64,000 nt of DNA from Patescibacteria group bacterium (GCA_043818355.1 JBDRFX010000021.1:3228-67227); one strand, 5' to 3'; counted from the stretch's first letter, positions 33,328 through 50,081 are shown. Program-made: numbers and translations. Notes: generated from the letters alone by a model not told the origin.

Positions 33328-35115
33328 TTATTGATTTTCCTCTATTTTTTTTGCTTCTTTAATTTTTAAAATTTCTTTTGGGTCAGTAGTAATAATTTGG
33401 TCTTCTGTGTAAGAGGCCACAATTTTAATAGCTACATGTTTTTGTCCAGCAAAGAAGATTCCCTCTCCTACTTCAGCCTCTAACAAAAGACTTTTTTCTT
33501 CATCGGTAAGATTAAATGTTTTTTGTAATAGATCAATCGTAGCAGGGCTTTGTTTTAAAAGAATTTGCATAGAAGAATTAGTAATGATTGGCTTTCCATA
33601 GTCGGACTTCATAAAGTCTCCTACGTCCTGAGTAATAGTTGTTACTCCCAGCCAATATTTTCTAGCTCTTTTAGCCATTCCATATAAGAAAGAGGCTCCA
33701 TCTTCAGATTGCATAATCCACCAAGCTTCATCCACCACTAAAATTCTTTTTTTCAGTTCAGATCTTACTTGGTTCCAAATATATCTCATAATAATGAACA
33801 TGGCTATTGGCCTCAATTCATCCTCCATATCTCTTATGCCAAAAACCACCAATGGCTGATTAGTAGAGATGTTTGTATGCTGGTTGAAGAAGTTGCCAAA
33901 GCTTCCTTTGGTAAACTTTCTAATTCTTTTTAATAAGGAATCAGATCCTTCCATAGTTGAGAGAACATCTTCCAAGTCTTCCATTAAAGGAATATTAGTA
34001 ATCCAGGTTGAAGGGTCTGTTTCTGGGGTGATGTCTTTGGCAGCATATGTCTCAGTTAGGGCCCTATCAATAACAGCATCTTCTTCGGGGGTTAATCCTT
34101 TAAGCATTGCTCTCATTAATCCAACCAAATTTATGATATTAGATCTTAAAACATCTTGTGGTTTCTCTCCTTCTCTGGGTGTTGGCAAATCAAAAGGATT
34201 AACATGGCTAGGAGAACTTAGAGAAATATCAAAGAAAGATCCGTCAACAGAATCAGATAAATGTCGGTATTCATTCTCTGGATCTAAGATAATAACATCT
34301 ACCCCAATCATTAGAGATCTTAATATTTCTAGTTTTATGGCATAGGATTTCCCAGAACCTGATTTAGCAAAAACTATAGAATTAGCATTTTCTAAACTAA
34401 ATCTATCAAATAGAATTAAAGAGTTATTATGTCTATTAATTCCATATAATATTCCGTCAGAAGAGCTTAAATCAAAAGATGTAAATGGGAAGATAGAAGA
34501 CAATGGTCCTGTATTCATTGATGTATGAACTTGTAATTGATCTAGTCCATAAGGAGCACAAGAATTAAATCCTTCTTTCTGTTGGTATAGAGCTGGTTTA
34601 ATATATATAAGTCTAGACTCTAAAATAGATCTTAAGGTTGTTTCTACTTCTTTTAGGTTTGCTTCCTCATCCCCATAAACGGTTAAATATACTCCCATTT
34701 TAAACATTTTTTCTTGGGCTGTTTGAAGGCTGTCTCTTAATCCTTCCAAATCTTGATGGGCTATTTCTAAAGAAGGATCTCTAATGAGTCCTTTTTCTTG
34801 TCTAGACATCATTTCAGCTTGAACTTCCGTCACCTTTCTTCTTAGTTGTCTTAAAATAGTTCCTGTTTCTGTGGGATGTATAAAAATAGAAACATCCATT
34901 GGATCGTCTAAGTTGATAATAGGAGAAAACCATCCAGTGCTTAAATATCTAGGATAGGAGAATATGAAAAAAGGTTTGGCTATTTTCTTACCAAGCTTAA
35001 GTTGATTTGAAGATAGAGAAATAGAAGAAGGGGCAATGATGTCATTCACCTCCATTGCTTTAGTTTCAAATATTTCTTCTTTTTCTTTTTTTTCGTCTTT
35101 TTTAAAAATGCTCAT
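33328..35115 (-). CDS. virB4: VirB4/TraC/CagE-family type IV secretion ATPase (C-terminal ATPase portion)
   Basis: 595 aa. Walker A AKSGSGKSYAIK. Walker B ILVVDEAWWIM (DEAW is typical of VirB4). Confidence 0.75.
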   Translation of the reverse strand: MSIFKKDEKKEKEEIFETKAMEVNDIIAPSSISLSSNQLKLGKKIAKPFFIFSYPRYLSTGWFSPIINLDDPMDVSIFIHPTETGTILRQLRRKVTEVQAEMMSRQEKGLIRDPSLEIAHQDLEGLRDSLQTAQEKMFKMGVYLTVYGDEEANLKEVETTLRSILESRLIYIKPALYQQKEGFNSCAPYGLDQLQVHTSMNTGPLSSIFPFTSFDLSSSDGILYGINRHNNSLILFDRFSLENANSIVFAKSGSGKSYAIKLEILRSLMIGVDVIILDPENEYRHLSDSVDGSFFDISLSSPSHVNPFDLPTPREGEKPQDVLRSNIINLVGLMRAMLKGLTPEEDAVIDRALTETYAAKDITPETDPSTWITNIPLMEDLEDVLSTMEGSDSLLKRIRKFTKGSFGNFFNQHTNISTNQPLVVFGIRDMEDELRPIAMFIIMRYIWNQVRSELKKRILVVDEAWWIMQSEDGASFLYGMAKRARKYWLGVTTITQDVGDFMKSDYGKPIITNSSMQILLKQSPATIDLLQKTFNLTDEEKSLLLEAEVGEGIFFAGQKHVAIKIVASYTEDQIITTDPKEILKIKEAKKIEENQ

Positions 35116-35118
35116 ATA

Positions 35119-35748
35119 TTACCTAGTTAATTCAGGAGGAATTTCCGGATAGTATCCTATTGAGGCTTCTTCTGGATGATGCAAAGACCAAAATATTTCG
35201 ATCAGTTCAGATGTATTTAAGGGAACAGACTTTAATCCACATCTTCTCAATCCCATGGCTACAAATTCCATTCTTTGCCAAAGTTGAGACTTGCCTCTTT
35301 TAAGTCTTTCTTCAGATATTTCTTCTTTAGATTTTTTACTGAATAATCCATCTCCAGCTCCAGGTATTTCTATTAAAGTAAAAGGAATAACAACATAAAA
35401 GCTTTTTGACATAATAGATCCTTTAGAAATTAATTCTTGTACAAAGTTTCTATATTCTGCTGTTTGTATTTTCAATAATTCATTTGATTGTTCGGCTTCT
35501 AATTTTTCTAGCTTTTCTAGATATCCCGTTATATTAAGTTTCCTAGATTGAATTACTATTTGAATAGTAAAGTCGAGTGAATTTAAGAAGTTTTGAAATT
35601 GATATATAATGGCGTTTTGTTCATCAAGCGATTTTAAAGCAAAGTTTAAAGAAGATACCATTAAAACACCCCTCATGGAGTTATTTTTTAAAATCACTAC
35701 CCCCTCTTTAATTTCTTTAATTTCTAAAAAATCTTGACTTGAAGACAT
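35119..35748 (-). CDS. Probable VirB4 N-terminal domain, in the same frame as the ATPase ORF and separated from it by one TAA codon
   Basis: 209 aa. Its TAA stop (35121-35119) is followed by one codon and then the ATG of the 595-aa ORF in the same frame. Combined length about 805 aa equals full-length VirB4. Confidence 0.4.
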   Translation of the reverse strand: MSSSQDFLEIKEIKEGVVILKNNSMRGVLMVSSLNFALKSLDEQNAIIYQFQNFLNSLDFTIQIVIQSRKLNITGYLEKLEKLEAEQSNELLKIQTAEYRNFVQELISKGSIMSKSFYVVIPFTLIEIPGAGDGLFSKKSKEEISEERLKRGKSQLWQRMEFVAMGLRRCGLKSVPLNTSELIEIFWSLHHPEEASIGYYPEIPPELTR

Positions 35749-35765
35749 TTTGTTTTATATAAATA

Positions 35766-36170
35766 TCAATTCTTTTTTGTTTCAACGAATGTTTGCAATT
35801 TTTTAATTTGGCTGTCTCTAGAAGTTTTAAATGGACTTTCTTTTGTAGATTTCACTAATTCAATTTTCTTTTCAACCATTTCAATCTTTGCCTCTCCCTT
35901 TTTCCAAATATACATTTTAGGAGAAGAATTAAACTTCATAGCATTGACTAGAAAGTTTGGTAAATCAACGCCATCTATTTTCAAAAAAGCTAAGGCTGCA
36001 GCACCTGCTATTAATATGGCGCCTGAGAACATAAATATTTCAAAAGGAGCAACAAAGTAAACCATGAAAGCAATTACTCCAGCGATACCAAAAAATCCGA
36101 ACTGCTTAAAGGTAAGAGGTCCTACTATTTTAGAATCTACTTCAATAAATTGTGGAACTGTGAACCGCAT
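35766..36170 (-). CDS. VirB3/PrgI-like small two-TM membrane protein
   Basis: 134 aa. Two adjacent TM helices (FGFFGIAGVIAFMVYFVAPF / IFMFSGAILIAGAAALAFL). Sits immediately upstream of VirB4, as VirB3/PrgI genes do. Confidence 0.4.
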   Translation of the reverse strand: MRFTVPQFIEVDSKIVGPLTFKQFGFFGIAGVIAFMVYFVAPFEIFMFSGAILIAGAAALAFLKIDGVDLPNFLVNAMKFNSSPKMYIWKKGEAKIEMVEKKIELVKSTKESPFKTSRDSQIKKLQTFVETKKN

Positions 36171-36661: not shown

Positions 36662-39112
36662 TTATTCTTCTTTCTTTTTTTCTTCTTTCTTTTTTTCTTT
36701 AGAGGATTGTCTTCCGATTTCTTTTACTAAGTTAGTAGTGAATCCTATCAAGCTTTTATCCACGACTTTCTTTATTTCTTGAGTGTTGCTTTTTTTGAGC
36801 TTAAGATTTTCCTCGTTTTGGTCGAGTCTGTTTTGGGTGCTTTTAAGTATATTTTCTAGATTTTGAACTTTAAAACCAGAGGCTCCAGCATTTCTTGCTT
36901 CGCTAATTTTCGTTGTAGTCTCTTCCATTTTTTCTTTTAATTCGCCCATATTTTTGCTCATTTTGTTTATTTCTTGAAGTCCTTTTGTATAGATGGCTTG
37001 ATTTTTTTCAATTTTAGCAATTTCTTTTTGTATTTCTTCAGTGTTTCCTTTTAGCTCTGCGAAATTTAAACCGGCATGTTTTAACGCGTTAATCTTAATG
37101 GTATTTGGCGTGATTGTTGAGATTGTTGTTTGATTGCCTCGGATTTGGATTACTTGTTTTATATGCTGATTCAGTTTTGTTTTGTCTATGCTTTCTATTT
37201 CTGGTGGCAACTTTAAAAACGCTGGACTACTCATGAGATATTTAACAAGGGCAGGATTTTCATGTACTAAATTTTCACCTCTACTATTTATAGCGCTTTG
37301 CATGATGTCGCGTGTTTTTTGATCAGAATTTTTTAAAGTTGCTCCAAGTTGACCTGGAGTTAATAGTGGTGCTAATTCTTTTCCAAGATCTGTTTCAAAG
37401 AATTTTTTATCAAGAGTTTCCATGTTTTTGTTAGATACGCCTGCAAATGCATTGCTAAGTATTTCTCTCTTGATAGCTGTTTTGGCATTGTTTTTTCCAT
37501 CTATAATGTTTTGTATTTTTGTCTTAATTTCTTGACCGCTTAGACTACTGTTCGCCGTTAAATTGCCTACTGCGACTCCTAGTTTTTGATCTTCTATAGA
37601 ATCCATAATTTTCATTATTTCAAATTGTTCCGCATAGTCAGAAGTCATTTGGGATTCTAAATCATCGGAGTTTCCTAGCTTGTCAAGGATAATTTTTGAT
37701 TTTATGGAGGCGACAGTCTTAGACGGCTTTATTCCTAAAACTTTATCGAGCTCTTTCTTTTTAGAGTCTTTTTCTATTATTCTTCCAGCTAATTCTGTGG
37801 TCCCTCCTATTCTTCTAGTAGTCCATCCCCTAAGACCAGTACCTTCGGATGCTCTCATTTTGTCTCCCATATCCCTCATTTTTTGACCAACTACTTCTCT
37901 TACTTCACTAATCCTGTCTTTTGTTATCGCACCAGCAATTTTCTGACTTTTTTCAGCTAATTTACTAGCAGCTTTAGGCATAGATTGAATTGAAATCATG
38001 ATTCCAAACCATAACATAGCTACAGAGATCATTGGAGCTAATATTTTTCCCAATAGATCGTTAGTTTGTGTTAGACTCATGCTATTTACAGTATCTTTTA
38101 ATGGAAGAGACAAGGTTGTTTCTAATTGAAAAGCAGTCAGTACTTCGTCTTGCTTAATCATTATTAAGTTAGACAAATATAAGAAAAAGCCAATAGGAAT
38201 TCCAACCGTAGCCCAAGCTACAAATTCTTTCCACCAACCCTTCCAACTTAATACGTCGGGTAATAATGATTTTACTAAATCAGAGTCTGTGGGTAGAACT
38301 TGAGAGAAGAAAGCTATTGGAGAAAGAATCATCAAAATCCATAAATAGATAATTCTGACAAACAATATTATAAAGACGGTAAAATAGGTAAAAGCAGAAA
38401 AGGCATAGAACATAATTAAAACTAAGCCATAGATCATAATGCTGGCAAAGTTGCCCATATAGATAGCCAAATTGTTAACTTCAGAATTTTCTTTAAAAAA
38501 GAATATGGATTGGAAGGAACTTGTAATATAATTCACTGCTTGGTCAAGTAGAGAAGGTAGGCTAGATATTTCTCCTGTTTTATTAAAAAAGAAATTAGTG
38601 AAAATATTGGCAATGTCTACTACAAAGCCGACTAAGACGGGAGTGAAATTAATTAAAAGAATAACAGCAATTAATTTTGGTAATGTTTTTTCAACCTCAT
38701 AGTTTTTTAATCTTAAGATTTTAGCTAGACCAATAATGGCTAGTATTAAGAGAAAAAACATATTAATAAAATCTCTCGTAAAGGCCCATCCTATCAACAC
38801 GATAGCATTTTGCGTAATGCTTACGTTTAAGCAAACAGTCATCAGCCAAGATAAAATAGAGGCTATTGTGGAGAAGATTAGTCCTGCTACCATGGCTAAA
38901 AGTCCCATAATTAAAGCCATAAAAAACAGCGGTATTTTAGTTATCAAAAGAGTACTAGAGACAAGTATTTTTTGGATAGCCTCTGATAGAGTTTCTAAAA
39001 TTCCAGCTTCTGCCATCTTAGTTGGTATCATGCTTAAGTAAAGAGAAAGCAGAATAGCAGAAAAAATTAATTTTCTGTTTTTAAATAATGTTTTGGCTAT
39101 TTTTTTTATCAC
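36662..39112 (-). CDS. VirB6/TrbL-like polytopic membrane protein with a roughly 450-aa hydrophilic coiled-coil C-terminal extension
   Basis: 816 aa. At least 8 TM helices in the N-terminal 370 aa, then K/E-rich coiled coil ending EKKKEEKKKEE. Confidence 0.5.
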   Translation of the reverse strand: MIKKIAKTLFKNRKLIFSAILLSLYLSMIPTKMAEAGILETLSEAIQKILVSSTLLITKIPLFFMALIMGLLAMVAGLIFSTIASILSWLMTVCLNVSITQNAIVLIGWAFTRDFINMFFLLILAIIGLAKILRLKNYEVEKTLPKLIAVILLINFTPVLVGFVVDIANIFTNFFFNKTGEISSLPSLLDQAVNYITSSFQSIFFFKENSEVNNLAIYMGNFASIMIYGLVLIMFYAFSAFTYFTVFIILFVRIIYLWILMILSPIAFFSQVLPTDSDLVKSLLPDVLSWKGWWKEFVAWATVGIPIGFFLYLSNLIMIKQDEVLTAFQLETTLSLPLKDTVNSMSLTQTNDLLGKILAPMISVAMLWFGIMISIQSMPKAASKLAEKSQKIAGAITKDRISEVREVVGQKMRDMGDKMRASEGTGLRGWTTRRIGGTTELAGRIIEKDSKKKELDKVLGIKPSKTVASIKSKIILDKLGNSDDLESQMTSDYAEQFEIMKIMDSIEDQKLGVAVGNLTANSSLSGQEIKTKIQNIIDGKNNAKTAIKREILSNAFAGVSNKNMETLDKKFFETDLGKELAPLLTPGQLGATLKNSDQKTRDIMQSAINSRGENLVHENPALVKYLMSSPAFLKLPPEIESIDKTKLNQHIKQVIQIRGNQTTISTITPNTIKINALKHAGLNFAELKGNTEEIQKEIAKIEKNQAIYTKGLQEINKMSKNMGELKEKMEETTTKISEARNAGASGFKVQNLENILKSTQNRLDQNEENLKLKKSNTQEIKKVVDKSLIGFTTNLVKEIGRQSSKEKKKEEKKKEE

Positions 39113-39177: not shown

Positions 39178-41724
39178 CTAGAAAGAGATTTGCCACCATG
39201 ATCCCATAGAAAATCCTAAAAGACCCAACAACATATTCAGGAATATCCAAGCAAAGAAAATAATAAAATATCCTTGCCCTGCCATTGTCCATGCTCTTTT
39301 TACTTTAAGCAAAACATTAGGAAAGTCATCATACATAGAGCTAAGGCTTTGTGTATAAGCAAAGTAGACATAGGCTCCAGTCCCTAAGGTTAATAGAGTT
39401 AAAATCATTAAGCTAACTCTCCATAATAAGAAATCTAGAATTATTCTAAACAAGAAAAAAAGATGTTTAATTTCGCATTTTTCCATTTCATTCCAAGGAG
39501 TATCTAGATTGTTTGTGTATCTTCCGCAGGGTACTAATCCAGCTTTTGAGGGGATATCAGGTTCTATTAAACTAAATTCTAGAGTTTCACTAACATATCC
39601 GGCTTGACTGCATTCGTTATCTAAACAAGCTTGGACATTCCAACTATAAGTACCAAGGCAAATTAAATCATTGAGAAAAATAGAATTAGAGCCAATAATA
39701 GATCTAAGAATTTCTTTACCTCCTTGGCTTTGACATTCTTCTGATTCTTGTTCTAGCGGAGCTTTTAGAGATAAGGTTGCAAGATAATAATTAGCACCTT
39801 CCACATTATCCCATTCTATTTTTTTATTATTTGTTACCATTTCTCCATCATTTTCAGGTATAGTATTTTGAGGAGCAGGAAGTTTTTTTGTTTCAAATAT
39901 TTGCTTATCAGTCCAAGAACCACAATATTCATTTAATCCTTCTTGATCAGCGCATGTTTTAACTCGGAAAGAATAATTTTTTTCTTGTAACGCTCCTTCA
40001 TTAAATCCGAAACTTAATATTGATTTGGGAGCAGCTCCAATGGGCTTAATAGTATTTTCTAGAATAATATTTGACCCCTCTTTTATTTCATATTTATAAG
40101 AAAGTGCTCCAGGGATATCCTCCCAGTTTATTTGAATAGGAAAAGAAGAATTATTAATATTTATGTTTTGAGGAGTTTTTCCTGTTGTTTGAAACTTCCA
40201 AGCAGAAGTGGTATTTTCTTCACAATTTTTTATAGTATCTTTTATATGACTTGAACATGCTGAAACTTGCCAGTTATAAATAGTATCTAAATTAAGATCT
40301 TTCCAAAAATGATCAAAATTAACAACTAGTCCATATTCCATAAGCTCTTTCCGAACAGTAGTATTATTTTTTTTGATTTCATAAAAATATGTTATAGCTC
40401 CCAATGTATCACTCCACTCCAAGTTACTTAAAAGATTAACAACAGGGATTGAATTAGGAAAGTTAGGATTGTATTGGGGAAATATTTTTTTGGGAATAGC
40501 GATGTCTACGAATTCAGTACGAAATCCCCACTTTTGGCTAGTTTCTGTTTCGCAAACATTTCCCTCTGTGTCAGAGCAAATAGTGACTTTCCAGTCATAG
40601 TCAGTATCTTTGGTGAGAGCTTCTAATCCTTCAAATTGAAGATAATTAGGCAAATTACCTTCTGTTTCTAATATTGTTTCATCCCAGATGAATTCACCAT
40701 CGCTATGTCTGTCTATGTTTAATAAATATGAGCCAGCAGAATCAGCTGGACACCATTCAAGCTTTACTGGAAATAAAACAGGTTCTTCAGTTTCAATAAA
40801 GGGCCCTGTCCAATCTTTGTCTTTTGGAGTTTTTAATTCAGGAGTTAAGGCAGTGGAAAAACTCCATTCTTGTACGTCTTCGCTTTCAAATGGTTTGCAA
40901 TCAGTTTCATTGAATCCGCAACAAGGTACAACTTTCCAACTTTCATTGCTACCTGCCCGAAATGTACATGCATTAGGAACAAATTCAGAGGCAGTTATAT
41001 TAACAGCAATATTTTTTTCATCATTATTAAATTGAATCTTATATGATTCAACACCATCATTTTTTTGCCATAGCTCCACATCATCCCAGTCTAGTTTTAC
41101 TGGCAGAGAAATATTATTACTTGGAAGACTTTTTTCTGGATTGCTATAATCTCTTGGAAAATATGGGCTATCATAATATCGGGGTTGTCCTTTTACTGGC
41201 TCTAAACAATCTCCCTTACAATCACAAGTATAAGTAGACTTATTTTTGGTCCAATTTGTTCCTCCAGAACAAGTTTGCCAACTTTCACAATCCTTGTCTT
41301 TGGTGTAATTTGTTTCACAATCAATATCTCTAGGCTCGCTCCAGCTGGTACATTTTTCTATGTATTTTCCGCTGGAATTTTTTTCACAACCGTCACAAGA
41401 TCTAGTTATTATGCCAGAGCATATTTTTTTTCTTATATATTCATCAACGCAAATTTTTTGTACTGGATTGCAACTGTATTCATTCCATTCCGCAATATCA
41501 ATTGTTAATTTTTCTGGTGCTTTATCACATTCTTCGCTCCAATGGCATTCTTCTACCTCGCCAACTGTAAAGCATTCATTGCAATATTGAGTTCCACAGG
41601 TATCGCATTTTCTAGTAGTGTCTTTAGCACAAGGAGATTCAGCTAAAACAGGCCCTATATATAATAGGGTTCCCAAAATGATTAGAAACAGAAAGAATAC
41701 TTGAGAAACTGAAAGCTTATTCAT
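39178..41724 (-). CDS. Giant secreted Cys-rich surface protein with W-rich repeat domains and a C-terminal pilin-like two-helix anchor
   Basis: 848 aa. Signal peptide. About 30 Cys in the first 200 aa (CAKDTTRKCDTCGTQYCNECF...). Repeated about 100-aa W-containing modules. C-terminus FIIFFAWIFLNMLLGLLGFSMGSWWQISF is homologous to the 134-aa protein at 49431-49835. Confidence 0.5.
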   Translation of the reverse strand: MNKLSVSQVFFLFLIILGTLLYIGPVLAESPCAKDTTRKCDTCGTQYCNECFTVGEVEECHWSEECDKAPEKLTIDIAEWNEYSCNPVQKICVDEYIRKKICSGIITRSCDGCEKNSSGKYIEKCTSWSEPRDIDCETNYTKDKDCESWQTCSGGTNWTKNKSTYTCDCKGDCLEPVKGQPRYYDSPYFPRDYSNPEKSLPSNNISLPVKLDWDDVELWQKNDGVESYKIQFNNDEKNIAVNITASEFVPNACTFRAGSNESWKVVPCCGFNETDCKPFESEDVQEWSFSTALTPELKTPKDKDWTGPFIETEEPVLFPVKLEWCPADSAGSYLLNIDRHSDGEFIWDETILETEGNLPNYLQFEGLEALTKDTDYDWKVTICSDTEGNVCETETSQKWGFRTEFVDIAIPKKIFPQYNPNFPNSIPVVNLLSNLEWSDTLGAITYFYEIKKNNTTVRKELMEYGLVVNFDHFWKDLNLDTIYNWQVSACSSHIKDTIKNCEENTTSAWKFQTTGKTPQNININNSSFPIQINWEDIPGALSYKYEIKEGSNIILENTIKPIGAAPKSILSFGFNEGALQEKNYSFRVKTCADQEGLNEYCGSWTDKQIFETKKLPAPQNTIPENDGEMVTNNKKIEWDNVEGANYYLATLSLKAPLEQESEECQSQGGKEILRSIIGSNSIFLNDLICLGTYSWNVQACLDNECSQAGYVSETLEFSLIEPDIPSKAGLVPCGRYTNNLDTPWNEMEKCEIKHLFFLFRIILDFLLWRVSLMILTLLTLGTGAYVYFAYTQSLSSMYDDFPNVLLKVKRAWTMAGQGYFIIFFAWIFLNMLLGLLGFSMGSWWQISF

Positions 41725-42559
41725 TAATATATTTTAAACTTTTTGCTAAATTTATCCAATCTTGGATTTTTAGAGACTCAGCCCTTCTACTTCCTTCAAT
41801 TTTTCCTTTATTCAATAATTTTGAAATTTGTTTTTTATCTAAATTAAGTTCTTGAGAAAAATTATTGGCTAATTGTTTTCTAGGATGAGAAAATCCAGCT
41901 TTCATAATTTTAAAAAATTCTGGAGCAAGAGTTTCTCTTTGTTGTTCCAAAACGTTTTTAGACAACATGGATACTTCAAGAATTGCAGAGTCAATAGTTG
42001 GAACTGGCCAAAAAGAGTTTTTAGAAATTAAAGAAATAATTTTAGGTTGAGCAAAGAATTGAACAGAGTTAGACAGAATGGTCATATCAGGAGGCGTGCT
42101 ACAAATTCTTTGGGCAACTTCTTTCTGTATAATAAAAACCATTTTTTCAGGTTTATTGGGCTCTTCTAAGAATTTCTTTATAATAGGAGAGGTAATATAA
42201 AAAGGCAGATTGCCCACTATTTTATACTTCTTTAGATTATGGGTATTGAAGTTCAAAATATCATCTTGAATTATTTTGATGTTTTCAAAATCTTTTAAAA
42301 TTTCCTTAGAAGCTTTAACCAATTCAGGATCTTTTTCAACTCCAATGACTTCCCCAGCTTTTTCTGCAAGGAATTGAGTAATGCTTCCAAGACCAGAGCC
42401 AATTTCTATAACAGTATCATTTTCATTCAAATCACAGGTTGTAATAAATTTAGCAATAATATTTTTATCTATTAAAAAGTTCTGCCCCATTTTCTTTTGT
42501 GGTTTAAGATTATAGTCCTCCAAGATGACCTGTATTGCCTTAGCTGAATATAGATTCAT
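41717..42559 (-). CDS. rsmA: 16S rRNA (adenine1518/1519-N6)-dimethyltransferase KsgA/RsmA
   Basis: 280 aa. NFLIDKNIIAKFI and SAM motif EIGSGLGSITQFL. Stop overlaps the start of the 848-aa gene by 8 nt. Confidence 0.9.
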   Translation of the reverse strand: MNLYSAKAIQVILEDYNLKPQKKMGQNFLIDKNIIAKFITTCDLNENDTVIEIGSGLGSITQFLAEKAGEVIGVEKDPELVKASKEILKDFENIKIIQDDILNFNTHNLKKYKIVGNLPFYITSPIIKKFLEEPNKPEKMVFIIQKEVAQRICSTPPDMTILSNSVQFFAQPKIISLISKNSFWPVPTIDSAILEVSMLSKNVLEQQRETLAPEFFKIMKAGFSHPRKQLANNFSQELNLDKKQISKLLNKGKIEGSRRAESLKIQDWINLAKSLKYINE

Positions 42560-42647
42560 ATTATTTAGGCTATCAGATTATTAAGTTTAAATCTACTTGA
42601 CTTTAAAGTCAGGGAAGGTATCATTAAGGCAAGTCAATTAAAGTATA

Positions 42648-43688
42648 TTGTCTTTGTTTAATTACAAAAAAATAACCCTATATATGTCACGGAAAAACAT
42701 TTTAATTGTTCTGATTGTGCTTACGGCTTTAATTTCATTGAATATTTTTAAAAACGAATCTCCATCTCTGAGTATGGAGAATTTTCAGTTTACCAACCCC
42801 AGCGATCTTTTTTTGAGTTCAATAGAAAAGTTTTCCATTGAATCCCCTGATTTATTGCTAATTCAGAAAAACAGTTTAAGAGCATCAATGCCTCCTACGG
42901 TTTTTTCTCCTCAAGTCTTAGGATCCTTAGTTGGAACAAGTGTTGAATCAACAGCAAGAAACTATATCATTGAATATGTTGTTGAATCAGGAGACACTCT
43001 TTCAGTTATTGCCAATAATAACAATATTTCTTTGAATAGTTTGCTTTGGGCCAATGATTTAACTCAATATTCTAAAATTAAGGTTGGACAAAAATTAGTT
43101 ATTCCTCCGGTTTCAGGAATAATTTATGTTGTTAAAAAAGGAGACACACTAAGTCAAATAGTTGAAAAATACAAAGGTAGCGTTCAAGAAATAGTTGAAT
43201 TTAATAAATTGTCAAGCGAATCAGATATTTTTATAGGAGATATTGTGGTTATCCCAGGAGGTAAGATGCCAGAAGGATTAACTCGTATTGTTAGTATTCC
43301 GGTTGGTGCTTCGTATTTTATTTATCCTTGCGAAGGTACTATTACTCAGGGATTGCATGGAGACATTAGAAATGCTGTAGATATTGCCAATAAGTGTGGA
43401 AAGCCAATTATTGCTTCAGCTTCAGGTATAGTTCAAAGATCAGGAACGATTTGGATTGGAGGTCAAAGAATAACAATTTTGCATCCCAATGGAGTAGTTA
43501 CTTATTATGGTCATTTATCTAAGATTTTTGTTACGTCAGGCCAAGAAGTAAGAAAAGGTGACATTATTGGATTAATGGGCAATACAGGCTATACAATAGG
43601 AGTTACTGGTTGCCACCTTCACTTTGATGTCAGAGGAACCGCAAACTTTTTAGGTGGATATTCAGTTGGAACAAAGTTAAGCTGGTAA
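42648..43688 (+). CDS. LysM-domain M23 metallo-endopeptidase (peptidoglycan hydrolase)
   Basis: 346 aa. Two LysM repeats (YVVESGDTLSVIA, YVVKKGDTLSQIV) and M23 motifs HGDIRNAVD...GNTGYTIGVTGCHLHFDV. Confidence 0.85.
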   Translation: MSLFNYKKITLYMSRKNILIVLIVLTALISLNIFKNESPSLSMENFQFTNPSDLFLSSIEKFSIESPDLLLIQKNSLRASMPPTVFSPQVLGSLVGTSVESTARNYIIEYVVESGDTLSVIANNNNISLNSLLWANDLTQYSKIKVGQKLVIPPVSGIIYVVKKGDTLSQIVEKYKGSVQEIVEFNKLSSESDIFIGDIVVIPGGKMPEGLTRIVSIPVGASYFIYPCEGTITQGLHGDIRNAVDIANKCGKPIIASASGIVQRSGTIWIGGQRITILHPNGVVTYYGHLSKIFVTSGQEVRKGDIIGLMGNTGYTIGVTGCHLHFDVRGTANFLGGYSVGTKLSW

Positions 43689-43771
43689 TAAAAACAATAT
43701 TTTACAAAAAATTAAGCCGCTATATTCCATTGGAAAATAGCGGTTTTAAAAAATAAGAAAAAAAGGTGGGA

Positions 43772-44170
43772 TTATATGTGTTTTTCTAGGAAATTTGCGA
43801 AGCCTGCCTGTATCTGGGGTGTAACATGAACAGATATGTTCTCTTCAAGTTTTTTACTTGTTCCGGGGACAACTACGTATCTACCCATTTTTATATAGAC
43901 TCCATTTAGCACACTGGAGCCAGAAACACTAAGCATTTCTTTTGCCTGTTGTAGACTAATAAGTTTTTCTGCCTCGCAAAAAAAGAATGGCTCGCTCTTT
44001 TTCCTTTTTCTCAGGCTTCCTATTAGTTTTAATTGGTTATTGCCAGATATTTCTAGCGCTAGTCGTGCTGTTCTCGTTCCATTCGACAACACAAATTTTT
44101 GTGATGTTATGCCGATTGGAGCCATGCTTTTCCCATATTCGCAGTATCCTGATGGTTTTTCTTCTATCAA
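43772..44170 (-). CDS. Hypothetical protein
   Basis: 132-aa ORF, no recognisable motif. Confidence 0.3.
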   Translation of the reverse strand: MIEEKPSGYCEYGKSMAPIGITSQKFVLSNGTRTARLALEISGNNQLKLIGSLRKRKKSEPFFFCEAEKLISLQQAKEMLSVSGSSVLNGVYIKMGRYVVVPGTSKKLEENISVHVTPQIQAGFANFLEKHI

Positions 44171-44321
44171 TCTTACTCCTCGATGCTTTCCCCCTTATTC
44201 AAATTAAGAATAGGGAGATTGCAAATTAAAATATATATTAAATATGTTTTTTAGGCAAATTTTTCTCAAAAACAAAAAGCCATCTACGGGCTTAAAATTC
44301 CTTTAAGATGTCTTTTTTAAA

Positions 44322-44690
44322 TTACTTTTTGCACTTTAAGCAAATTCTAGCTTGAGGAGAAATTTTTAATCTTTCAATATTAATAGGCTTGCCACATACC
44401 TCGCATATGCCATATTTTTCTTTTTCAATCTTTTTTAGAGCTAAATTAATATCTTTAAATTTAGTTTCTAAGCTTTCTTCTATAGAAAGTAGCGTGCTGT
44501 ATTGTTCTACTTCATCAGCCTCTTTCTCTAGGTCTACTCCTTCAGAACCTGTTCCCATGGAAGGAAATTTAGTGTCCCAATCCCCTTCGGTGGTACTGTC
44601 TTTCTCAGCAAAACCACCTAGCATTTTTTCTAGTTTTTCTTTTTCTGCTTTTAATTTTTCCTTTAATTCTGTTTTTAATTTTTCATTCAT
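44322..44690 (-). CDS. DksA/TraR-family C4 zinc-finger protein
   Basis: 122 aa. N-terminal coiled coil, C-terminal CEVCGKPIN...CLKCKK zinc finger. Confidence 0.7.
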   Translation of the reverse strand: MNEKLKTELKEKLKAEKEKLEKMLGGFAEKDSTTEGDWDTKFPSMGTGSEGVDLEKEADEVEQYSTLLSIEESLETKFKDINLALKKIEKEKYGICEVCGKPINIERLKISPQARICLKCKK

Positions 44691-44694
44691 GTTT

Positions 44695-45552
44695 TTAATT
44701 TTTTATTCTAGCTATTATTAACCCCTGTCGACCATTATTTTTTAAATATTCTTCTAAAGATTCTTCGATTACTTTTCCTTTTATTGAAGAGGCATGTCTT
44801 AAAAGAATTTTTTCACTAATTGATATAATTCCAAGATGTGTTATGTCTAGCCCTTCATTCTTAGTATAGAATCCTATCAAGTCTCCATTTTTTAAAAACT
44901 GATAAGATTCCATAAGATTCTCTCTTGGAACGAAACATATTTCTTTATCAATAGGAGCAATTCCCTCTACCCATTCTTTGCTATTAAGTTCTTTTTGTTC
45001 GCAAATAAATCCTTCAAAAGTATTTGATATATTATTTATATTATATGCATTATCTATCCATTGGGCAAAAAAATGATTCCTTTTGATAAAACTGACTTCT
45101 CCATTTTCATATCTGATTAATTTTAATTTATCATAAAAGTCTGAAAAGTCATTTGATAGAGACAGAGCCACAACATAATCCAAGAAAGTAGAACAATCCA
45201 TTTCATCTAACTTGATTACAAGATTTTCTGACAAATCCTTATCAGTGTTTAGGGTGTCAGCCTTATACGGAATTTCTAAGAACATTTTTGAAATATAGTC
45301 TATTCTATCTCCGTCATTATATTCTTTAGATCTTTCAATTAATTCTTCAAGGGACTGAATATCCCAGTTACCCAAAGAAATTTCTTTTTTAAATTTTTCT
45401 TCTGGTAGAATAACCTCTGACTCTCTAACTGGAAAACAATAAGCCAGCGTTATGGCTATTATCAAAAAAACAAACGAAGAAAGTATTTTCTTCATACTTA
45501 AAGAGATAATTGTTGTGTGTAAAAATCTAACGTTTCCCAAGAAAAATTCCAA
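44695..45552 (-). CDS. Hypothetical secreted protein (possibly DUF1460/amidase-like)
   Basis: 285 aa. Internal Met gives signal peptide MKKILSSFVFLIIAITLAYC. C-terminal GLDITHLGIISI...HASSIKGKV. Weak assignment. Confidence 0.3.
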   Translation of the reverse strand: MEFFLGNVRFLHTTIISLSMKKILSSFVFLIIAITLAYCFPVRESEVILPEEKFKKEISLGNWDIQSLEELIERSKEYNDGDRIDYISKMFLEIPYKADTLNTDKDLSENLVIKLDEMDCSTFLDYVVALSLSNDFSDFYDKLKLIRYENGEVSFIKRNHFFAQWIDNAYNINNISNTFEGFICEQKELNSKEWVEGIAPIDKEICFVPRENLMESYQFLKNGDLIGFYTKNEGLDITHLGIISISEKILLRHASSIKGKVIEESLEEYLKNNGRQGLIIARIKN

Positions 45553-46421
45553 GGATCTGTTTGTTCTGGAGAAATTTCATTTCTTCCTAATATGTTTTCT
45601 TGGTTAATTGGATATTCTTTTTGTAAATAATTAACCAGCAGGGCTAAGGATTTATATTGGTTTTCATTAGGACTTTCGTCTATTTTATAAATCAACTCAA
45701 TACCTATAGAAAAATCATTAATAATATTCTTTCTACTACCATCTGGCATTGCTCCACTACCAGCATGATGAGCGATATATTCATTAGGAATTAAAAGATA
45801 GATTACTCCTTCTCTGTTAATAAAGTAATGGGGAGCAACTTTATAGTTTTTATATTTTTCAAGTATTGTGAAAATATCGTATGAATCTTCGCTAGTACTG
45901 TATCCTGAATGAATAATAATAGTATCAATATCACGAGGCTCGCTGGGAACTTTATATCCCCACGAAATAAGGTTGTTTTTTATCAGTTCCTCTATGGGCA
46001 GTTCCACTTTTTCTGGTTCTTTTATTTCGGGAATTTTTTCAACAATTTCCTCTGGATTTATTGCCTCCGGTATCTCTTCTTGATTATTTTTATTTATAAT
46101 TTTAATAACCAAAAAGCCAGCTATGGATAAAAAGATTAAGATTATTGCTATTCTGACGAGATATTTTTTAGCTTGAGAGGGTCGATAAATCTTTTTAGGT
46201 ATAATATCTTCTGTTACAGTCTGTGGGTCGGACGTAGGAAGTGGTGTGGACGGAGATGGAGTAATAATTTTTCCTCCACTTTTTTCAATTTCCAAAGACG
46301 CAATCCTTTCTCTTTCTGTTTGGGCTGCATTTTCCCTGAGACTTTTCAGGTCTTTTTGCATTGTCCTAATGTCTTCTCTTCTTAAGAACTTTAATTTTTC
46401 CTCTTTTTGTTCTTCTGCCAT
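45498..46421 (-). CDS. N-acetylmuramoyl-L-alanine amidase (Amidase_2/PGRP fold) with N-terminal coiled coil and TM anchor
   Basis: 307 aa. TIIIHSGYSTSE...APHYFINREGVIYLLIPNEYIAHHAGSG...SIGIELI. Confidence 0.7.
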   Translation of the reverse strand: MAEEQKEEKLKFLRREDIRTMQKDLKSLRENAAQTERERIASLEIEKSGGKIITPSPSTPLPTSDPQTVTEDIIPKKIYRPSQAKKYLVRIAIILIFLSIAGFLVIKIINKNNQEEIPEAINPEEIVEKIPEIKEPEKVELPIEELIKNNLISWGYKVPSEPRDIDTIIIHSGYSTSEDSYDIFTILEKYKNYKVAPHYFINREGVIYLLIPNEYIAHHAGSGAMPDGSRKNIINDFSIGIELIYKIDESPNENQYKSLALLVNYLQKEYPINQENILGRNEISPEQTDPWNFSWETLDFYTQQLSL

Positions 46422-46432
46422 TTAAAGAGATT

Positions 46433-48529
46433 TTAAGATTTTTTTACGATACTTTTAAGTTTCAAATTAATTCTGCCTTGTTCGTCAACAGAAATTACCT
46501 GGACTTGCACTTTGTCACCAATGTTAATTACATCAGTAACTTTATCTATTCTCTTGTCAGATAACTTAGAAATATGAATCATACCATCTTTTCCAGGTAG
46601 TAATTCTACAAAAGCGCCAAAGTCTAAAATCTTTACAACAGTGCCTTCAAATTCTTGACCAACTTCAATTTCTTTGGTCAAAGTTTCTATCCAATCCATG
46701 GCTTTCTGAGCATCTTTTTCTGATTCAGCTGTTACAAAGATTTGTCCATCCTCTTCAATATCAATTGTAACATTGCAGGTTTGAGTAATCTCATTTATTA
46801 TCTTACCTCCCTTTCCAATCACATCGCCAATCTTTTCAGGATCAATTTTAATGGTCAATATTCTAGGAGCAAATGGAGATAGATTCTTTCTTGGTTCAGG
46901 AATAACTTTCTGAATTTCTTTTAAGATTTCTAAACGAGCTTTTTGACCTTGTTTGAATCCTTGTTCTAGAATTTCCAAGGAGATTCCTCTAATTTTAATA
47001 TCCATTTGAACAGCAGTGATTCCTTTTTCTGTTCCAGTTATCTTTAAGTCCATGTCTCCGAAATGATCTTCTAATCCTTGAATATCAGTTAAGATTTTAA
47101 AGTCATTGCCTTTTCTAGCCAAGCCCAAAGAAATACCTGCTACAGGGGCCTTAATTGGCACTCCTGCATCCATTAGGGCAATGGTTGATCCACAAGTGGC
47201 AGCCATAGAGCTTGAGCCGTTAGAAGACAATATTTCTGTTACAACTCTGATTGTATATGGAAAATTTTCTTGAGAAGGCATAACAGGCTTCAAAGCTTTT
47301 TCGGCTAACATGCCATGTCCTATCTCTCTTCTGCCAGGTCCCCTAATAGGTCTTACTTCTCCCACACAATAAGGTGGAAAGTTATAGTGATGCATATATC
47401 TTTTTTCTCCAGAAACCTCCATGCCATCTAATAGCCTAACGTCTCCAGGAGCACCCAATGTTAAAATAGACAATGCTTTGGTTTTTCCTCTGCAAAATAA
47501 TCCAGATCCATGAGTTCTTGAGAACAATCCATCTTTTACAGATATCTTCCTTATTTCATCCATTTTTCTGTTATCAAGTCTTTTGTCTTGCAATATTTTT
47601 TCATGGAAAAGTTCATCAGTAAAATCTTCTAAGAAGTTTTCTACAGTTCCATTATTATCTTGTTCGGGAAGTTCTTTGTTAGCAATTTCTAACATTTCTT
47701 CTTCTATCTTTTTTAGACCATCCTCTCTTTCTCTTCTATCTTGAATTTCAATAGTTTTAGATAGTTTGTCTGTTAAAAGATTTCTAATATCTTTCTCAAC
47801 TCCTTCGGAAATAGTTTTTGCTATAAATTCTTGTTTAGTTTTACCAACTTTTTGAGCAATTTTATTCTGAAACTCAATTATTTTTTCAAATTCTGGTTGA
47901 GCTGATTTTAAAGCTTCAAGCATTATTTTTTCATCTGCTTCTTTGGCCTCAGCTTCAATCATATTAAATTCTAATTTATTTTGATTAAAAACAGCAGAGA
48001 TAGCTAGGTCAAAAACACTTTGTTCTCTTTGTTCATAGGTAGGATTGAGTATAGTTTTTCCATCAACTTGTCCTATCCTGAGAGGAGCCACAGGTCCTAA
48101 CCAAGGAATATCAGAAACTAAAAGAGCCACTGAGGCGGCTAATAATCCAATAACATCGGCATCGTTTTCTTTGTCCCAAGAGAGACAGGTGATAATAATC
48201 TGTACTTCTTTTTTAAACCCTTTTGGGAAAAGAGGTCTAATAGCTCTATCAATTAATCTTGAGACTATAACGGCTTCGTCAGAAGGTCTTCCTTCTCTTC
48301 TCATATAGCGCGATCCTAGAATTTTACCAGCAGCATAGTTTTTTTCTTCATAGTTAACAGATAAGGGAAAATAGTCTAATCCATCCTTTTGAATTTCAGA
48401 TATCACGGCAGTAGCCAAAACAACAGTATCTCCATACTGAATTATGCAAGATCCTGAAGCCTGTTCTGCTAAATCATTAATTTCAACTGTTAAGTCTTTT
48501 TCTCCTATTTTTAAAGTAAATTTTTCCAT
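46433..48529 (-). CDS. pnp: Polynucleotide phosphorylase
   Basis: 698 aa. Two RNase PH domains, KH (GKGGKIINEI) and S1. Confidence 0.95.
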   Translation of the reverse strand: MEKFTLKIGEKDLTVEINDLAEQASGSCIIQYGDTVVLATAVISEIQKDGLDYFPLSVNYEEKNYAAGKILGSRYMRREGRPSDEAVIVSRLIDRAIRPLFPKGFKKEVQIIITCLSWDKENDADVIGLLAASVALLVSDIPWLGPVAPLRIGQVDGKTILNPTYEQREQSVFDLAISAVFNQNKLEFNMIEAEAKEADEKIMLEALKSAQPEFEKIIEFQNKIAQKVGKTKQEFIAKTISEGVEKDIRNLLTDKLSKTIEIQDRREREDGLKKIEEEMLEIANKELPEQDNNGTVENFLEDFTDELFHEKILQDKRLDNRKMDEIRKISVKDGLFSRTHGSGLFCRGKTKALSILTLGAPGDVRLLDGMEVSGEKRYMHHYNFPPYCVGEVRPIRGPGRREIGHGMLAEKALKPVMPSQENFPYTIRVVTEILSSNGSSSMAATCGSTIALMDAGVPIKAPVAGISLGLARKGNDFKILTDIQGLEDHFGDMDLKITGTEKGITAVQMDIKIRGISLEILEQGFKQGQKARLEILKEIQKVIPEPRKNLSPFAPRILTIKIDPEKIGDVIGKGGKIINEITQTCNVTIDIEEDGQIFVTAESEKDAQKAMDWIETLTKEIEVGQEFEGTVVKILDFGAFVELLPGKDGMIHISKLSDKRIDKVTDVINIGDKVQVQVISVDEQGRINLKLKSIVKKS

Positions 48530-48531
48530 TT

Positions 48532-49041
48532 TTATCTATTTTTAATTAAGTATTTTTTAGCGTCTTGTTCTAAATCAATAAAGTCATCTACAACTTCCCT
48601 GAGTGCTGAAGAGGCAGATCTTCCGAAAGCAATTACTTCCACTCTTTTTCCTTGATTTTTTAAGTATTCAACTAATTGAATAAAATCACCATCTCCTGAA
48701 GCCAAAACAATTGTGTCTATTGCTGGAGCGATTCTAACAGCATCAATGCTTATGCCAACATCCCAGTCTCCTTTTTTTGTTCCACCATGAAATTCTTGTA
48801 AATCTTTAACTCTAGTTTCAATGCCTAATTTTACTAAAGCTTCAAAAAATGCTTTTTCTTCTCCACCCTTAGTTTTAATCACATAAGCAAAAGCGCGGAT
48901 AAGACTTCTTTGAGCTACGGCTAATCTTAAAACGGCTCCGAAGTTAACCTTAGCAGTATAAAGATTTTTAGCTGAATGGTAAAGGTTCTGGACGTCTATT
49001 AGAACTGCTACTCTTTGACCCTTGTGTTGAGAGATGGTCAT
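48532..49041 (-). CDS. NYN-domain (LabA-like, PIN-related) protein
   Basis: 169 aa. [16 protein letters not shown]...[13 protein letters not shown]. Inserted between rpsO and pnp. Confidence 0.75.
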
Positions 49042-49307
49042 TTATTTTTTAAGCCAACTTTTTTAACGATATTGTCATGTCTCTTAATGTCTTTTTCTTT
49101 TAAGTATTTCAAGAGAGACTTTCTTTGAAAAACCATTTTTAATAAACCTCTTTTTGAGTGGAGGTCTTTGGTATGTTTTTTTAAGTGTAAAAGTAATTGT
49201 TCAATTTCTTCTGACAACAAAGCTACTTGCACCTCTGGTGAACCAGTGTCTGAATTATGAAGCTTATATTTTTTAATAATTTGGTCTTTTTCTTCTAAAG
49301 TTAGCAT
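49038..49307 (-). CDS. rpsO: 30S ribosomal protein S15
   Basis: 89 aa. [35 protein letters not shown]... Confidence 0.9.
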
Positions 49308-49347
49308 ATTGTTTTAATTTAAATTTTTGTTTTTAAGTATTTTTATG

Positions 49348-49420
49348 TGCCCCGCGCAGGACTCGAACCTACAACCAATTGCTTAAGAGGCAACTGCTCT
49401 ACCGATTGAGCTAGCGGGGC
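49348..49420 (-). tRNA. tRNA-Lys (anticodon CTT)
   Basis: Manual cloverleaf: acceptor GCCCCGC/GCGGGGC, D-arm GCTC-AATCGGTA-GAGC, anticodon loop CTCTTAA, T-arm GTAGG-TTCGAGT-CCTGC. CCA not encoded. Confidence 0.85.
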
Positions 49421-49430
49421 CTCTTTATTT

Positions 49431-49835
49431 TTATGGGCAATTGATTTGCCACCAAGTGCCAATGCCAGTCCACTCAGATACTCCCATGAAAGAAAGAAAG
49501 GTGTTTAAGAATATCCAAGACATTGAAATGACTAATAATCCCACTACAGTTGCTTTAAATATTTCTTGAGCTGTTTTTAGGTGATTTTGATTTGCTCCTG
49601 CTGCCATATAATAACCTCCTCCGATAACCAACATTAATGTTGCTACAATAGGAGTAAGTCTGGTTAAAATAAAATTGATGACGTTATTGATAAGTACAAA
49701 AAGATGACAAAACTTGCAGGGATTAGCTATTGTTCCACAAGGAATGAATTCATAAGCCATTGTGGTTATTGGGACTAAACAAAGGAATAAAAAAAGTAGA
49801 TTGCCCAATAACTTCATTTTGATTTTGTTTGCCAT
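49431..49835 (-). CDS. Pilin-like small membrane protein (VirB2/TrbC-like two-helix module)
   Basis: 134 aa. N-terminal TM, Cys-containing loop (CGTIANPCKFC), then LMLVIGGGYYMAAG...VISMSWIFLNTFLSFMGVSEWTGIGTWWQINCP, homologous to the C-terminus of the 848-aa protein. Confidence 0.45.
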   Translation of the reverse strand: MANKIKMKLLGNLLFLFLCLVPITTMAYEFIPCGTIANPCKFCHLFVLINNVINFILTRLTPIVATLMLVIGGGYYMAAGANQNHLKTAQEIFKATVVGLLVISMSWIFLNTFLSFMGVSEWTGIGTWWQINCP

Positions 49836-49844
49836 AGATTTTTG

Positions 49845-49918
49845 TACCCCCGACAGGACTCGAACCTGTAGTCTCTGCGTCCGAAGCGCAGCGCCATATC
49901 CAATTAGACTACGGGGGT
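49845..49918 (-). tRNA. tRNA-Arg (anticodon TCG)
   Basis: Manual cloverleaf: acceptor ACCCCCG/CGGGGGT, anticodon stem CTGCG/CGCAG with loop CTTCGGA, T-arm ACAGG-TTCGAGT-CCTGT. The D-stem has only 3 pairs. Confidence 0.7.
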
Positions 49919-50081
49919 GTACTTCGAATGCAGGAATATCTTTTTAATTTTATTACATATTTTACCACTCAATTTACCTTTGGGCAAGAACAGAAAGCAA
50001 CAAAGCTTTTTTGCCATATTTTTAATAAAAAATCAAGTCTTTTTGATTGAAAAAACTAATTTTTCATCATAGAATAAAAGA

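Follow-up and report, generated by a model that had tools for sequence, protein, structure and literature searches.

A VirB2-like pilin module forms the C-terminus of a large cysteine-rich protein encoded at the head of a type IV secretion cluster in Patescibacteria

The type IV secretion system (T4SS) is widespread in Patescibacteria and lies beside the replication origin; the system is essential in the one species tested, and its function and its means of host contact are obscure (PMC10633639, PMC11665869, PMC12857230). VirB2-like pilins, often several divergent paralogues beside the dnaA-linked T4SS, have already been published (PMC12102498; PMC10633639; PMC12857230), and they are essential in Candidatus Southlakia (PMC10633639). 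The census of this T4SS by Quinonero-Coronel et al. 2025 treated the pilins as small and detected no adhesin (PMC12102498). Here we analyze a stretch of 64,000 nucleotides from a Patescibacteria group bacterium (GCA_043818355.1, JBDRFX010000021.1:3228-67227), which we call the window, and in particular three of its proteins: a cysteine-rich protein of 848 amino acids, a free protein of 134 amino acids, and a protein of 244 amino acids from a T4SS gene cluster.

The source is an ultrasmall, Parcubacteria-type bacterium (G+C content of the window about 32%), and the cluster, on the minus strand, is of the same kind as the dnaA-adjacent T4SS described for Patescibacteria. Like those systems, it is adjacent to dnaA, contains VirB4, PrgI/VirB3 and VirB6-like genes, and has several divergent pilin paralogues; we saw no relaxase in the cluster. 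The pilin modules are of the same family as the VirB2-like pilins of the Ca. Southlakia epibionticum and TM7x arrays (PMC12102498, PMC10633639). Unlike in the published arrays, an 848-residue protein with a stalk of fibronectin type III (FN3) domains heads the cluster, the pilins within the operon carry extra domains at either end, and one free paralogue lies outside the cluster between two tRNA genes.

A first-pass annotation, made from the sequence alone, had proposed that the C-terminus of the 848-residue protein is homologous to the 134-residue protein. The annotation had named a loss of significance after correction for composition as grounds for refutation, and no such loss occurs: with composition adjusted, the two match by BLASTP at E = 2e-14, with 30% identity across 122 columns. 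The alignment reaches N-terminally past the segment that was first proposed, to a PCG...C motif that both proteins have before helix 1, and its other end is the terminal WWQI. The Smith-Waterman score is 135, as compared to 30 ± 5 for global shuffles (z = 19.7) and 43 ± 10 for shuffles inside 8-residue blocks, which preserve the hydrophobicity profile (z = 8.8; 0 of 2000 reach the observed score). Profile-profile alignment of the fusion tails with the free pilins (hhalign) gives a probability of 99.9% and E = 1e-31. Also, a hidden Markov model of the free-pilin family picks exactly the 848-, 134- and 244-residue proteins from the 449 six-frame open reading frames (ORFs) in the window. These results confirm that the 848-residue protein and the 134-residue protein share a module. 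Transmembrane segments often match each other spuriously, so we considered whether hydrophobic hairpins might be alike by chance or composition, or whether an assembly or annotation artefact had joined two genes. The lack of direct similarity between the 848-residue tail and the 244-residue protein (see below) would agree with chance, but the composition-adjusted E value, the block shuffles and the hhalign result do not, and the same uninterrupted architecture is present in over 120 independent protein clusters and in 31 genome loci. We consider both ideas to be refuted and give them almost no credence.

The 244-residue protein had been described as carrying a looser version of the module, and this is correct, though the link runs only by way of the 134-residue protein and of profiles. 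Its relation to the other two is visible only by Smith-Waterman alignment of trimmed mature sequences and by profiles. Against the mature 134-residue protein, the Smith-Waterman score is 70 (z = 9.5 for global shuffles and 5.0 for 8-residue blocks; 0 of 2000), and hhalign links the operon pilins to the free pilins (probability 97.8%, E = 8.5e-13) and to the fusion tails (probability 90.6%, E = 1.3e-6). Pairwise BLASTP of the 244-residue protein finds nothing in either the 848- or the 134-residue protein; against the 848-residue tail, there is no pairwise similarity (BLASTP reports E = 0.062 for an unrelated segment, and the shuffle z is -0.4).

The suggestion of a VirB2-type pilin in the first-pass annotation is supported: at the level of the family, the module belongs to PF18895 (T4SS_pilin, VirB2-like), a Pfam family of Patescibacteria that had been named before. 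All three proteins match it, with 30.1 bits for the 244-residue protein, 19.9 bits for the 134-residue protein, and 13.7 bits for the 848-residue protein. The curated cut-off is 26.6 bits, so for the latter two proteins membership rests on family-level and profile-profile evidence. PF18895 is matched at E ≤ 0.01 by 112 of the 119 homologues of the 134-residue protein and at E ≤ 0.1 by 8 of 10 fusion orthologues. The cut-off is passed by a divergent fusion-family member of 1380 amino acids (at locus L039, 27.4 bits) and by P0152, a free protein of 150 amino acids with a fusion-type tail (27.0 bits), which also illustrates that small free proteins with this type of tail exist. A profile of the module found 421 proteins, and the best 120 are all of 109-209 amino acids and nearly all were already annotated with PF18895. 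Some homologues of the 134-residue protein, from metagenome-assembled genomes of Nealsonbacteria or Parcubacteria, are named "pilin" by NCBI. In NCBIfam, the 244-residue protein matches NF045849 (pilin-like) at 1.3e-5, which is below the cut-off for NF045849, and there is no match for the 848- or 134-residue proteins.

The 134- and 848-residue proteins also have the layout of VirB2-type pilins, with a signal-peptide segment (whose cleavage is predicted), two hydrophobic helices, and a short loop containing K/R, as judged from hydropathy and AlphaFold2 (AF2) models. Two long hydrophobic helices, a short basic loop, a signal peptide and a VirB4 encoded alongside are likewise found for VirB2/TrbC/TraA of diderm bacteria (PF04956; the T-pilus, 8exh, and the F-pilus). 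PF04956 (TrbC/VirB2) is matched by 45 of the 119 homologues of the 134-residue protein (best E = 1.2e-6) and by none of the three window proteins at E ≤ 0.1. Unlike the diderm conjugative pilins, the proteins described here have a probable disulfide knuckle (PCG...C) before helix 1, their envelope is monoderm, and they have no significant sequence or fold match to solved pilins. T-pilus VirB2 (8exh) is at rank 2 in the Foldseek results (24% identity over 68 columns; not significant). The sole match of the free-pilin profile among PDB sequences is PsaF, which we rejected as trivial similarity of the signal peptide and "LVPC".

The 848-residue protein consists of a signal peptide, a cysteine-rich head, five FN3-like domains, and the C-terminal pilin module, which makes up about 14% of its length (Table 1). 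It has 36 cysteines, and about half of these are in the head. A similar hydrophobic, signal-peptide-like N-terminus is present in 100 of the 111 long homologues whose sequences start with M. The stalk is made of repeated beta-sandwich domains of about 100 amino acids that match FN3 structures: the best Foldseek hits in PDB are to gp130 (6.8e-13), fibronectin Fn7B89 (2.1e-12), and FN3 domains 1-4 of LAR (1e-11). PF25788 (Ig_Rha78A_N) is matched by 7 of 10 members of the fusion family. A BLAST comparison of the 848-residue protein to itself finds no internal repeats; only the family consensus and the AF2 model (predicted local distance difference test, or pLDDT, of 68.6) reveal them. The module itself has a GLVPCG...C knuckle (residues 732-750), helix 1 (752-793), a basic loop (794-800), helix 2 (801-835), and a WWQISF end. 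In the AF2 models, the helices are about 35-42 residues long, which is more than a plain membrane span needs. The sequence lacks LPXTG and has no match to an adhesin family in Pfam or NCBIfam; its C-terminus is the pilin module instead.

Nine orthologues of 679-1068 amino acids align with the 848-residue protein from end to end (28-35% identity), and all of them keep the tail. The mean pairwise identity among the orthologues is 51% for the tail, 41% for the passenger, and 31% for the head, which is the most variable part. This gradient fits with a constrained assembly module and a diversifying binding end.

The start of the module coincides exactly with the mature N-terminus of the free pilins (xGLVPCG); by comparison of the sequences, it is as though the passenger had been placed after the signal peptide and ahead of the mature pilin. 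This coincidence could also be explained if the 848-residue protein were a giant pro-pilin that is cut at GLVPCG, so that an FN3 protein, soluble or secreted, is co-produced with a mature pilin of normal size. The propilins of VirB2 and TraA have unusually long leaders that are removed by signal peptidase, which would favor this idea. But there is no conserved signal-peptidase site before GLVPCG (the preceding residues are SKA, CKP, AQG, EKI, QRG, GQN, GGG, or QGL), there is no hydrophobic segment ahead of the junction, and the only protease gene that is conserved in the cluster is the divergent M23/LysM peptidase. Because the junction is not conserved, we consider cleavage of a pro-pilin to be quite improbable.

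To see how widespread the fusion is, we ran a fusion-tail profile (HMMER) exhaustively against 1.84 billion cluster representatives and found 2851 matches at E ≤ 1e-3, 775 at E ≤ 1e-10, and 160 at E ≤ 1e-30. Among the best 150 matches, 124 have at least 400 amino acids (median 791, maximum 1668), and the module is always at the extreme C-terminus. At least 124 clusters, with proteins of 400-1668 amino acids, have this architecture. (Word-indexed searches with single sequences returned only 5 and 10 matches, and the size of the family was seen by the exhaustive search of representatives.) Nearly all of the long proteins share the whole passenger. Other passengers with a fusion-type tail are: three PKD domains in P0219; an InlB B-repeat and PKD in P0262; PKD in P0255; and a right-handed beta-helix ahead of an FN3 stalk in P0202. 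Judging from these sequences, the tail type is portable across passengers.

We also collected related loci: 31 from a scan of one genome per species, plus two metagenome contigs. The titles of the 31 loci give Nealsonbacteria, Parcubacteria, Paceibacterota, Wildermuthbacteria, or generic automated names. At all 29 of the informative loci (those whose sequence extends at least 0.8 kb downstream of the fusion gene), an operon pilin and/or a VirB6-like gene comes next. The conserved order is: divergent M23/LysM peptidase, rsmA, fusion gene, operon-type pilin and/or VirB6-like gene, p147, PrgI, TraC-like gene, VirB4, (small pilin), jag, yidC, dnaA. Because this order is the same at every informative locus, we conclude that, in this lineage of Parcubacteria, the T4SS cluster consistently begins with the fusion gene. 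The proposal that the module is used both as a free protein and as the tail of a giant cysteine-rich passenger is therefore borne out, and the fusion is both conserved and linked to the T4SS. At two loci, tandem giant paralogues with pilin tails are at the head of the cluster (L031, 3043-8545; L034, 1-4704), which is consistent with diversification of the passenger.

The free 134-residue pilin has a signal peptide, a PCG-x6-C-x2-C knuckle, two helices (residues 42-78 and 83-116 in the AF2 model, pLDDT 77), and a WWQINCP end. It belongs to a four-cysteine type: the cysteines of PCG and C-x2-C and the C-terminal cysteine are all kept in 107 of 118 free pilins. In contrast, 156 of 156 fusion-type tails have the first two cysteines only, and both the third and the terminal cysteine are absent. 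As the third and the terminal cysteines are present or absent jointly, the sequences suggest two disulfides: one within the knuckle, which would form in both types, and one from the C-terminus to the start of helix 1, which would form only in the free pilins. VirB2 and TrbC undergo head-to-tail peptide cyclisation. Free pilins of the type described here probably tie the C-terminus back by the second disulfide instead, which could possibly be a substitute for that cyclisation.

As reported in the first-pass annotation, the free pilin gene lies between genes for tRNA-Lys and tRNA-Arg (identified by ARAGORN). It is 7.7 kb upstream of the gene for the 848-residue protein, and this distance is conserved in relatives. 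Downstream of tRNA-Lys are rpsO, a gene with an NYN domain, and pnp. Seven related loci (L003, L007, L012, L020, L022, L023, and L026) keep the order tRNA-Arg(tcg), pilin, tRNA-Lys(ctt), rpsO, and the tRNA-Lys side is present at four further loci; at L016, the two tRNA genes are adjacent with no gene between them. Across relatives, the tRNA-nested pilins have 48-71% protein identity. A promoter scan found a sole promoter-like site, which is upstream of tRNA-Arg (49987-49959), and a scan of the window found no terminator-like site that would separate tRNA-Arg, the pilin gene, and tRNA-Lys, and none before rpsO. We infer from this arrangement that the free pilin is probably co-transcribed with the tRNAs and hence would be highly expressed, and the arrangement suggests that the pilin's mRNA is released from the tRNA precursor by RNase P/Z. 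High expression would agree with a study in which T4SS pilins are reported to rank with the most strongly expressed unknown genes of Paceibacterales (PMC10936435). We also note that the NYN-domain gene, which encodes a predicted RNase (48532-49041, minus strand), has the same place between rpsO and pnp at L003 and L007.

The operon-type pilins show further that the module can be combined with other domains. The 244-residue protein has a signal peptide, a pilin module (residues ~58-127; nucleotides 32526-32735), and a beta-rich C-terminal extension of about 115 amino acids. We found orthologues at 24 loci, and their extensions are variable. They have three forms: the bare module (100-136 amino acids); the module with a C-terminal domain of 114-317 amino acids, as in the window; and an N-terminal passenger of 150-363 amino acids followed by the module and a C-terminal domain. 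The N-terminal passengers at L014 (14064-15578), L022 (13013-14758), and L037 (9328-11055) contain He_PIG Ig domains, and the operon pilin of L029 (10768-12126) has a C-terminal beta/gamma-crystallin domain. PF18895 is above its cut-off in all of these domain-bearing pilins. The tRNA-adjacent pilin of L015 (42-1154) has an N-terminal extension of 284 amino acids with an IPT/TIG domain. The presence of domains at both ends of the hairpin would fit with both ends being extracellular, as in VirB2. Some relatives' pilins have cysteine-rich N-terminal regions, or have the module in the middle of a protein of 500-580 amino acids. Also, ARAGORN reports a 95-nucleotide "tRNA-Stop (tta)" at L022 (14578-14672), inside the coding sequence of a modular pilin of 579 amino acids; this is probably a false positive.

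On balance, we lean towards the view that the 848-residue protein is a modular VirB2-like (PF18895) T4SS pilin by which a stalk resembling an adhesin is joined to the surface structure of the T4SS. Beyond the homology, architecture, conservation, and synteny described above, this view contains a topology, a shared route of assembly, an adhesin role, and a stoichiometry that we infer as follows. The protein would be exported by Sec through its N-terminal signal peptide, and outside the cell the variable cysteine-rich head and the five disulfide-bearing FN3-like domains would fold. The C-terminal ~120 residues would insert as a helical hairpin in the topology of VirB2/TrbC pilins, with both ends outside and the short basic loop inside. 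The hairpin is closely homologous to the 134-residue pilin, and the fusion would therefore join the same membrane pool as the free pilin, and it would be handled by the VirB4/PrgI/VirB6-like machinery that is encoded directly downstream. The stalk would then be physically linked to the surface structure of the T4SS, in which the fusion would most plausibly be a tip or minor subunit of low copy number, and the 134-residue protein would likely be the bulk (major) subunit. The 244-residue operon pilin would present its extra domain on the opposite, C-terminal end.

Several points weigh against this view. A passenger of about 700 residues on every subunit would crowd the filament, so only a role as a minor or tip subunit seems reasonable. 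A pilus of a Patescibacteria T4SS has never been observed and is a possibility only (PMC12857230). The 848-residue tail and the 134-residue protein both score below the cut-off of PF18895. Foldseek yields a generic helical hairpin, with which a pilin and any other helical hairpin are indistinguishable, and the profile search of PDB sequences finds no solved VirB2 or TraA. The AF2 confidence for the 848-residue protein is moderate (the alignment had 10 sequences only) and is low in the head and the C-terminal end.

The hairpin might instead be a pilin-derived membrane anchor and nothing else. If so, the tail would hold the FN3-stalk adhesin or T4SS accessory in the cytoplasmic membrane, possibly docked laterally to the VirB6-like protein or VirB4, and it would never be extracted or polymerised. 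A signal peptide and two hydrophobic helices suffice for a stable anchor, the lack of a known pilus in the phylum agrees with it, and the T4SS synteny is equally expected of an accessory that does not polymerise. Also, the two cysteines that are missing from every fusion-type tail but kept in most free pilins may matter for assembly. But the tail is the best-conserved part of the protein, and plain anchors usually keep hydrophobicity only; the tail shares invariant P-C-G, C, G, and W positions and the terminal WWQI with the free pilins; and its helices are much longer than the membrane span. The operon pilins carry domains on either end, which suggests that the module itself matters. We think that a mere anchor, which is the main rival reading, is less likely than the modular pilin.

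A modular pilin that adds an adhesive part to a filament has a precedent in PilB from Streptococcus sanguinis, a type IV pilus (T4P) protein whose pilin module is fused to an adhesive module so that the filament gains binding (PMC8179133). The pilin fold and the machinery of T4P are unrelated to those of the T4SS, and the extra module is C-terminal in T4P pilins but N-terminal in the 848-residue family, and the operon pilins have it at the N-terminus, the C-terminus, or both. In its expected role in contacting a target cell, its encoding in the T4SS cluster, and its elongated multi-domain extracellular architecture, the 848-residue protein resembles VirB5 (the pilus tip of diderms) and LPXTG adhesins of the PrgB type. 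Unlike these, it has no sequence relation to VirB5 or PrgB and no LPXTG or sortase signal, and in place of tip docking (VirB5) or wall anchoring (PrgB), it would be attached via a covalently fused pilin module.

In open-access texts, we found no paper on a VirB2-type pilin that is fused to large domains, and no member of the classical VirB2 family with a large passenger domain. What was known before is the module and its machinery; in these texts, we found no earlier description of the architecture of signal peptide, cysteine-rich head, FN3 stalk, and pilin tail. For the way in which this T4SS touches a host cell, the 848-residue protein is the leading candidate to date: conserved, encoded first in the cluster, and with a stalk and a variable head covalently joined to a pilin module, it is a concrete candidate for host contact that can be tested. 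If this is true, then conjugative-type pilins, too, would follow the principle of the modular pilin that is known from type IV pili. The fast-evolving cysteine-rich head would be a natural place to seek determinants of host range in this huge uncultivated lineage. A broader version is possible, and we put it forward tentatively: the VirB2-like hairpin may be a portable tag that loads Ig-like, FN3, PKD, beta-helix, and crystallin passengers on the T4SS filament, which would make these proteins the first modular conjugative-type pilins. The 848-residue family would then be the missing host-contact adhesin (a functional substitute for VirB5/PrgB), and the tRNA-nested four-cysteine pilin would be a major subunit that is "pseudo-cyclised" by a disulfide.

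Table 1. Coordinates in the window of the three pilin-like proteins, their parts, and the neighboring genes
Feature	Position	Strand	Evidence
848-aa modular pilin-tailed surface protein (putative), whole ORF including stop	39178..41724	-	ORF list
Signal peptide of the 848-aa protein, aa 1-28, MNKLSVSQVFFLFLIILGTLLYIGPVLA before ES	41641..41724	-	Hydrophobic aa 2-32; AF2 helix 6-20; predicted cleavage site
Cys-rich head, aa 29-175, 19 Cys	41200..41640	-	Cys positions; low AF2 confidence
Five FN3/Ig-like beta-sandwich domains, aa ~206-722, conserved Cys pairs in each	39559..41109	-	AF2 strands, Foldseek
Pilin module, aa 727-848	39181..39546	-	BLASTP, hhalign, AF2 helices
Free 134-aa pilin	49431..49835	-	ORF; PF18895 match; AF2; Cys pattern
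tRNA-Arg(tcg)	49844..49918	-	ARAGORN; 8 nt upstream of free pilin gene
tRNA-Lys(ctt)	49347..49420	-	ARAGORN; 10 nt downstream of free pilin gene, then rpsO
244-aa operon pilin	32172..32906	-	ORF; PF18895 30.1 bits
816-aa polytopic membrane protein, VirB6 position	36662..39112	-	ORF; syntenic in all related loci
PrgI/VirB3-like	35766..36170	-	Pfam PrgI 9.5e-11
209-aa protein, TraC-like position	35119..35748	-	PF26593 TraC-like recorded on L001 and L002 orthologues
VirB4 ATPase	33328..35115	-	Pfam P-loop_TraG 1e-28
rsmA (16S rRNA dimethyltransferase)	41717..42559	-	ORF; synteny in 22 related loci

The order of genes in the window is rsmA, the 848-residue ORF, the 816-residue protein, a 147-residue protein, PrgI/VirB3-like, the 209-residue protein, VirB4, a 127-residue membrane protein, and the 244-residue protein (Table 1). 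Beyond the gene for the 244-residue protein come jag, yidC, and rnpA on the opposite strand, and then dnaA/dnaN. The gene for the 816-residue protein is directly downstream of the fusion gene; this protein has no Pfam match, so the "VirB6-like" label rests on its position and topology. The C-terminal half of the 816-residue protein, after many membrane helices, is hydrophilic and rich in K/E (about 400 residues). In this, it resembles the "extended VirB6" proteins that are mentioned in PMC12857230.

The end of rsmA overlaps the start of the gene for the 848-residue protein by 8 nucleotides (41717-41724), and the adjacency recurs in relatives; PF00398 is recorded on the rsmA orthologue of L002. 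Because of the overlap and the recurring adjacency, transcription and translation of the T4SS cluster appear to be joined to those of this housekeeping gene. On the other side of rsmA, a divergent gene (42648-43688, plus strand) encodes a protein with LysM and Peptidase_M23 domains, which is kept beside rsmA and the fusion gene at nearly all related loci. We regard it as a candidate VirB1-like hydrolase of the cell wall for this T4SS; for Paceibacteria, an association of VirB1-like proteins with VirB4 has been noted (PMC12102498).

The cumulative GC skew of the window has its minimum at about 50 kb (~49900-50100). The orientation of the genes also flips there, from minus up to tRNA-Arg to plus from the gene for the CCA-adding enzyme at 50082. 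If the skew is taken as a guide, the origin of replication may be next to the tRNA-pilin locus, some 20 kb away from dnaA (28889-30238).

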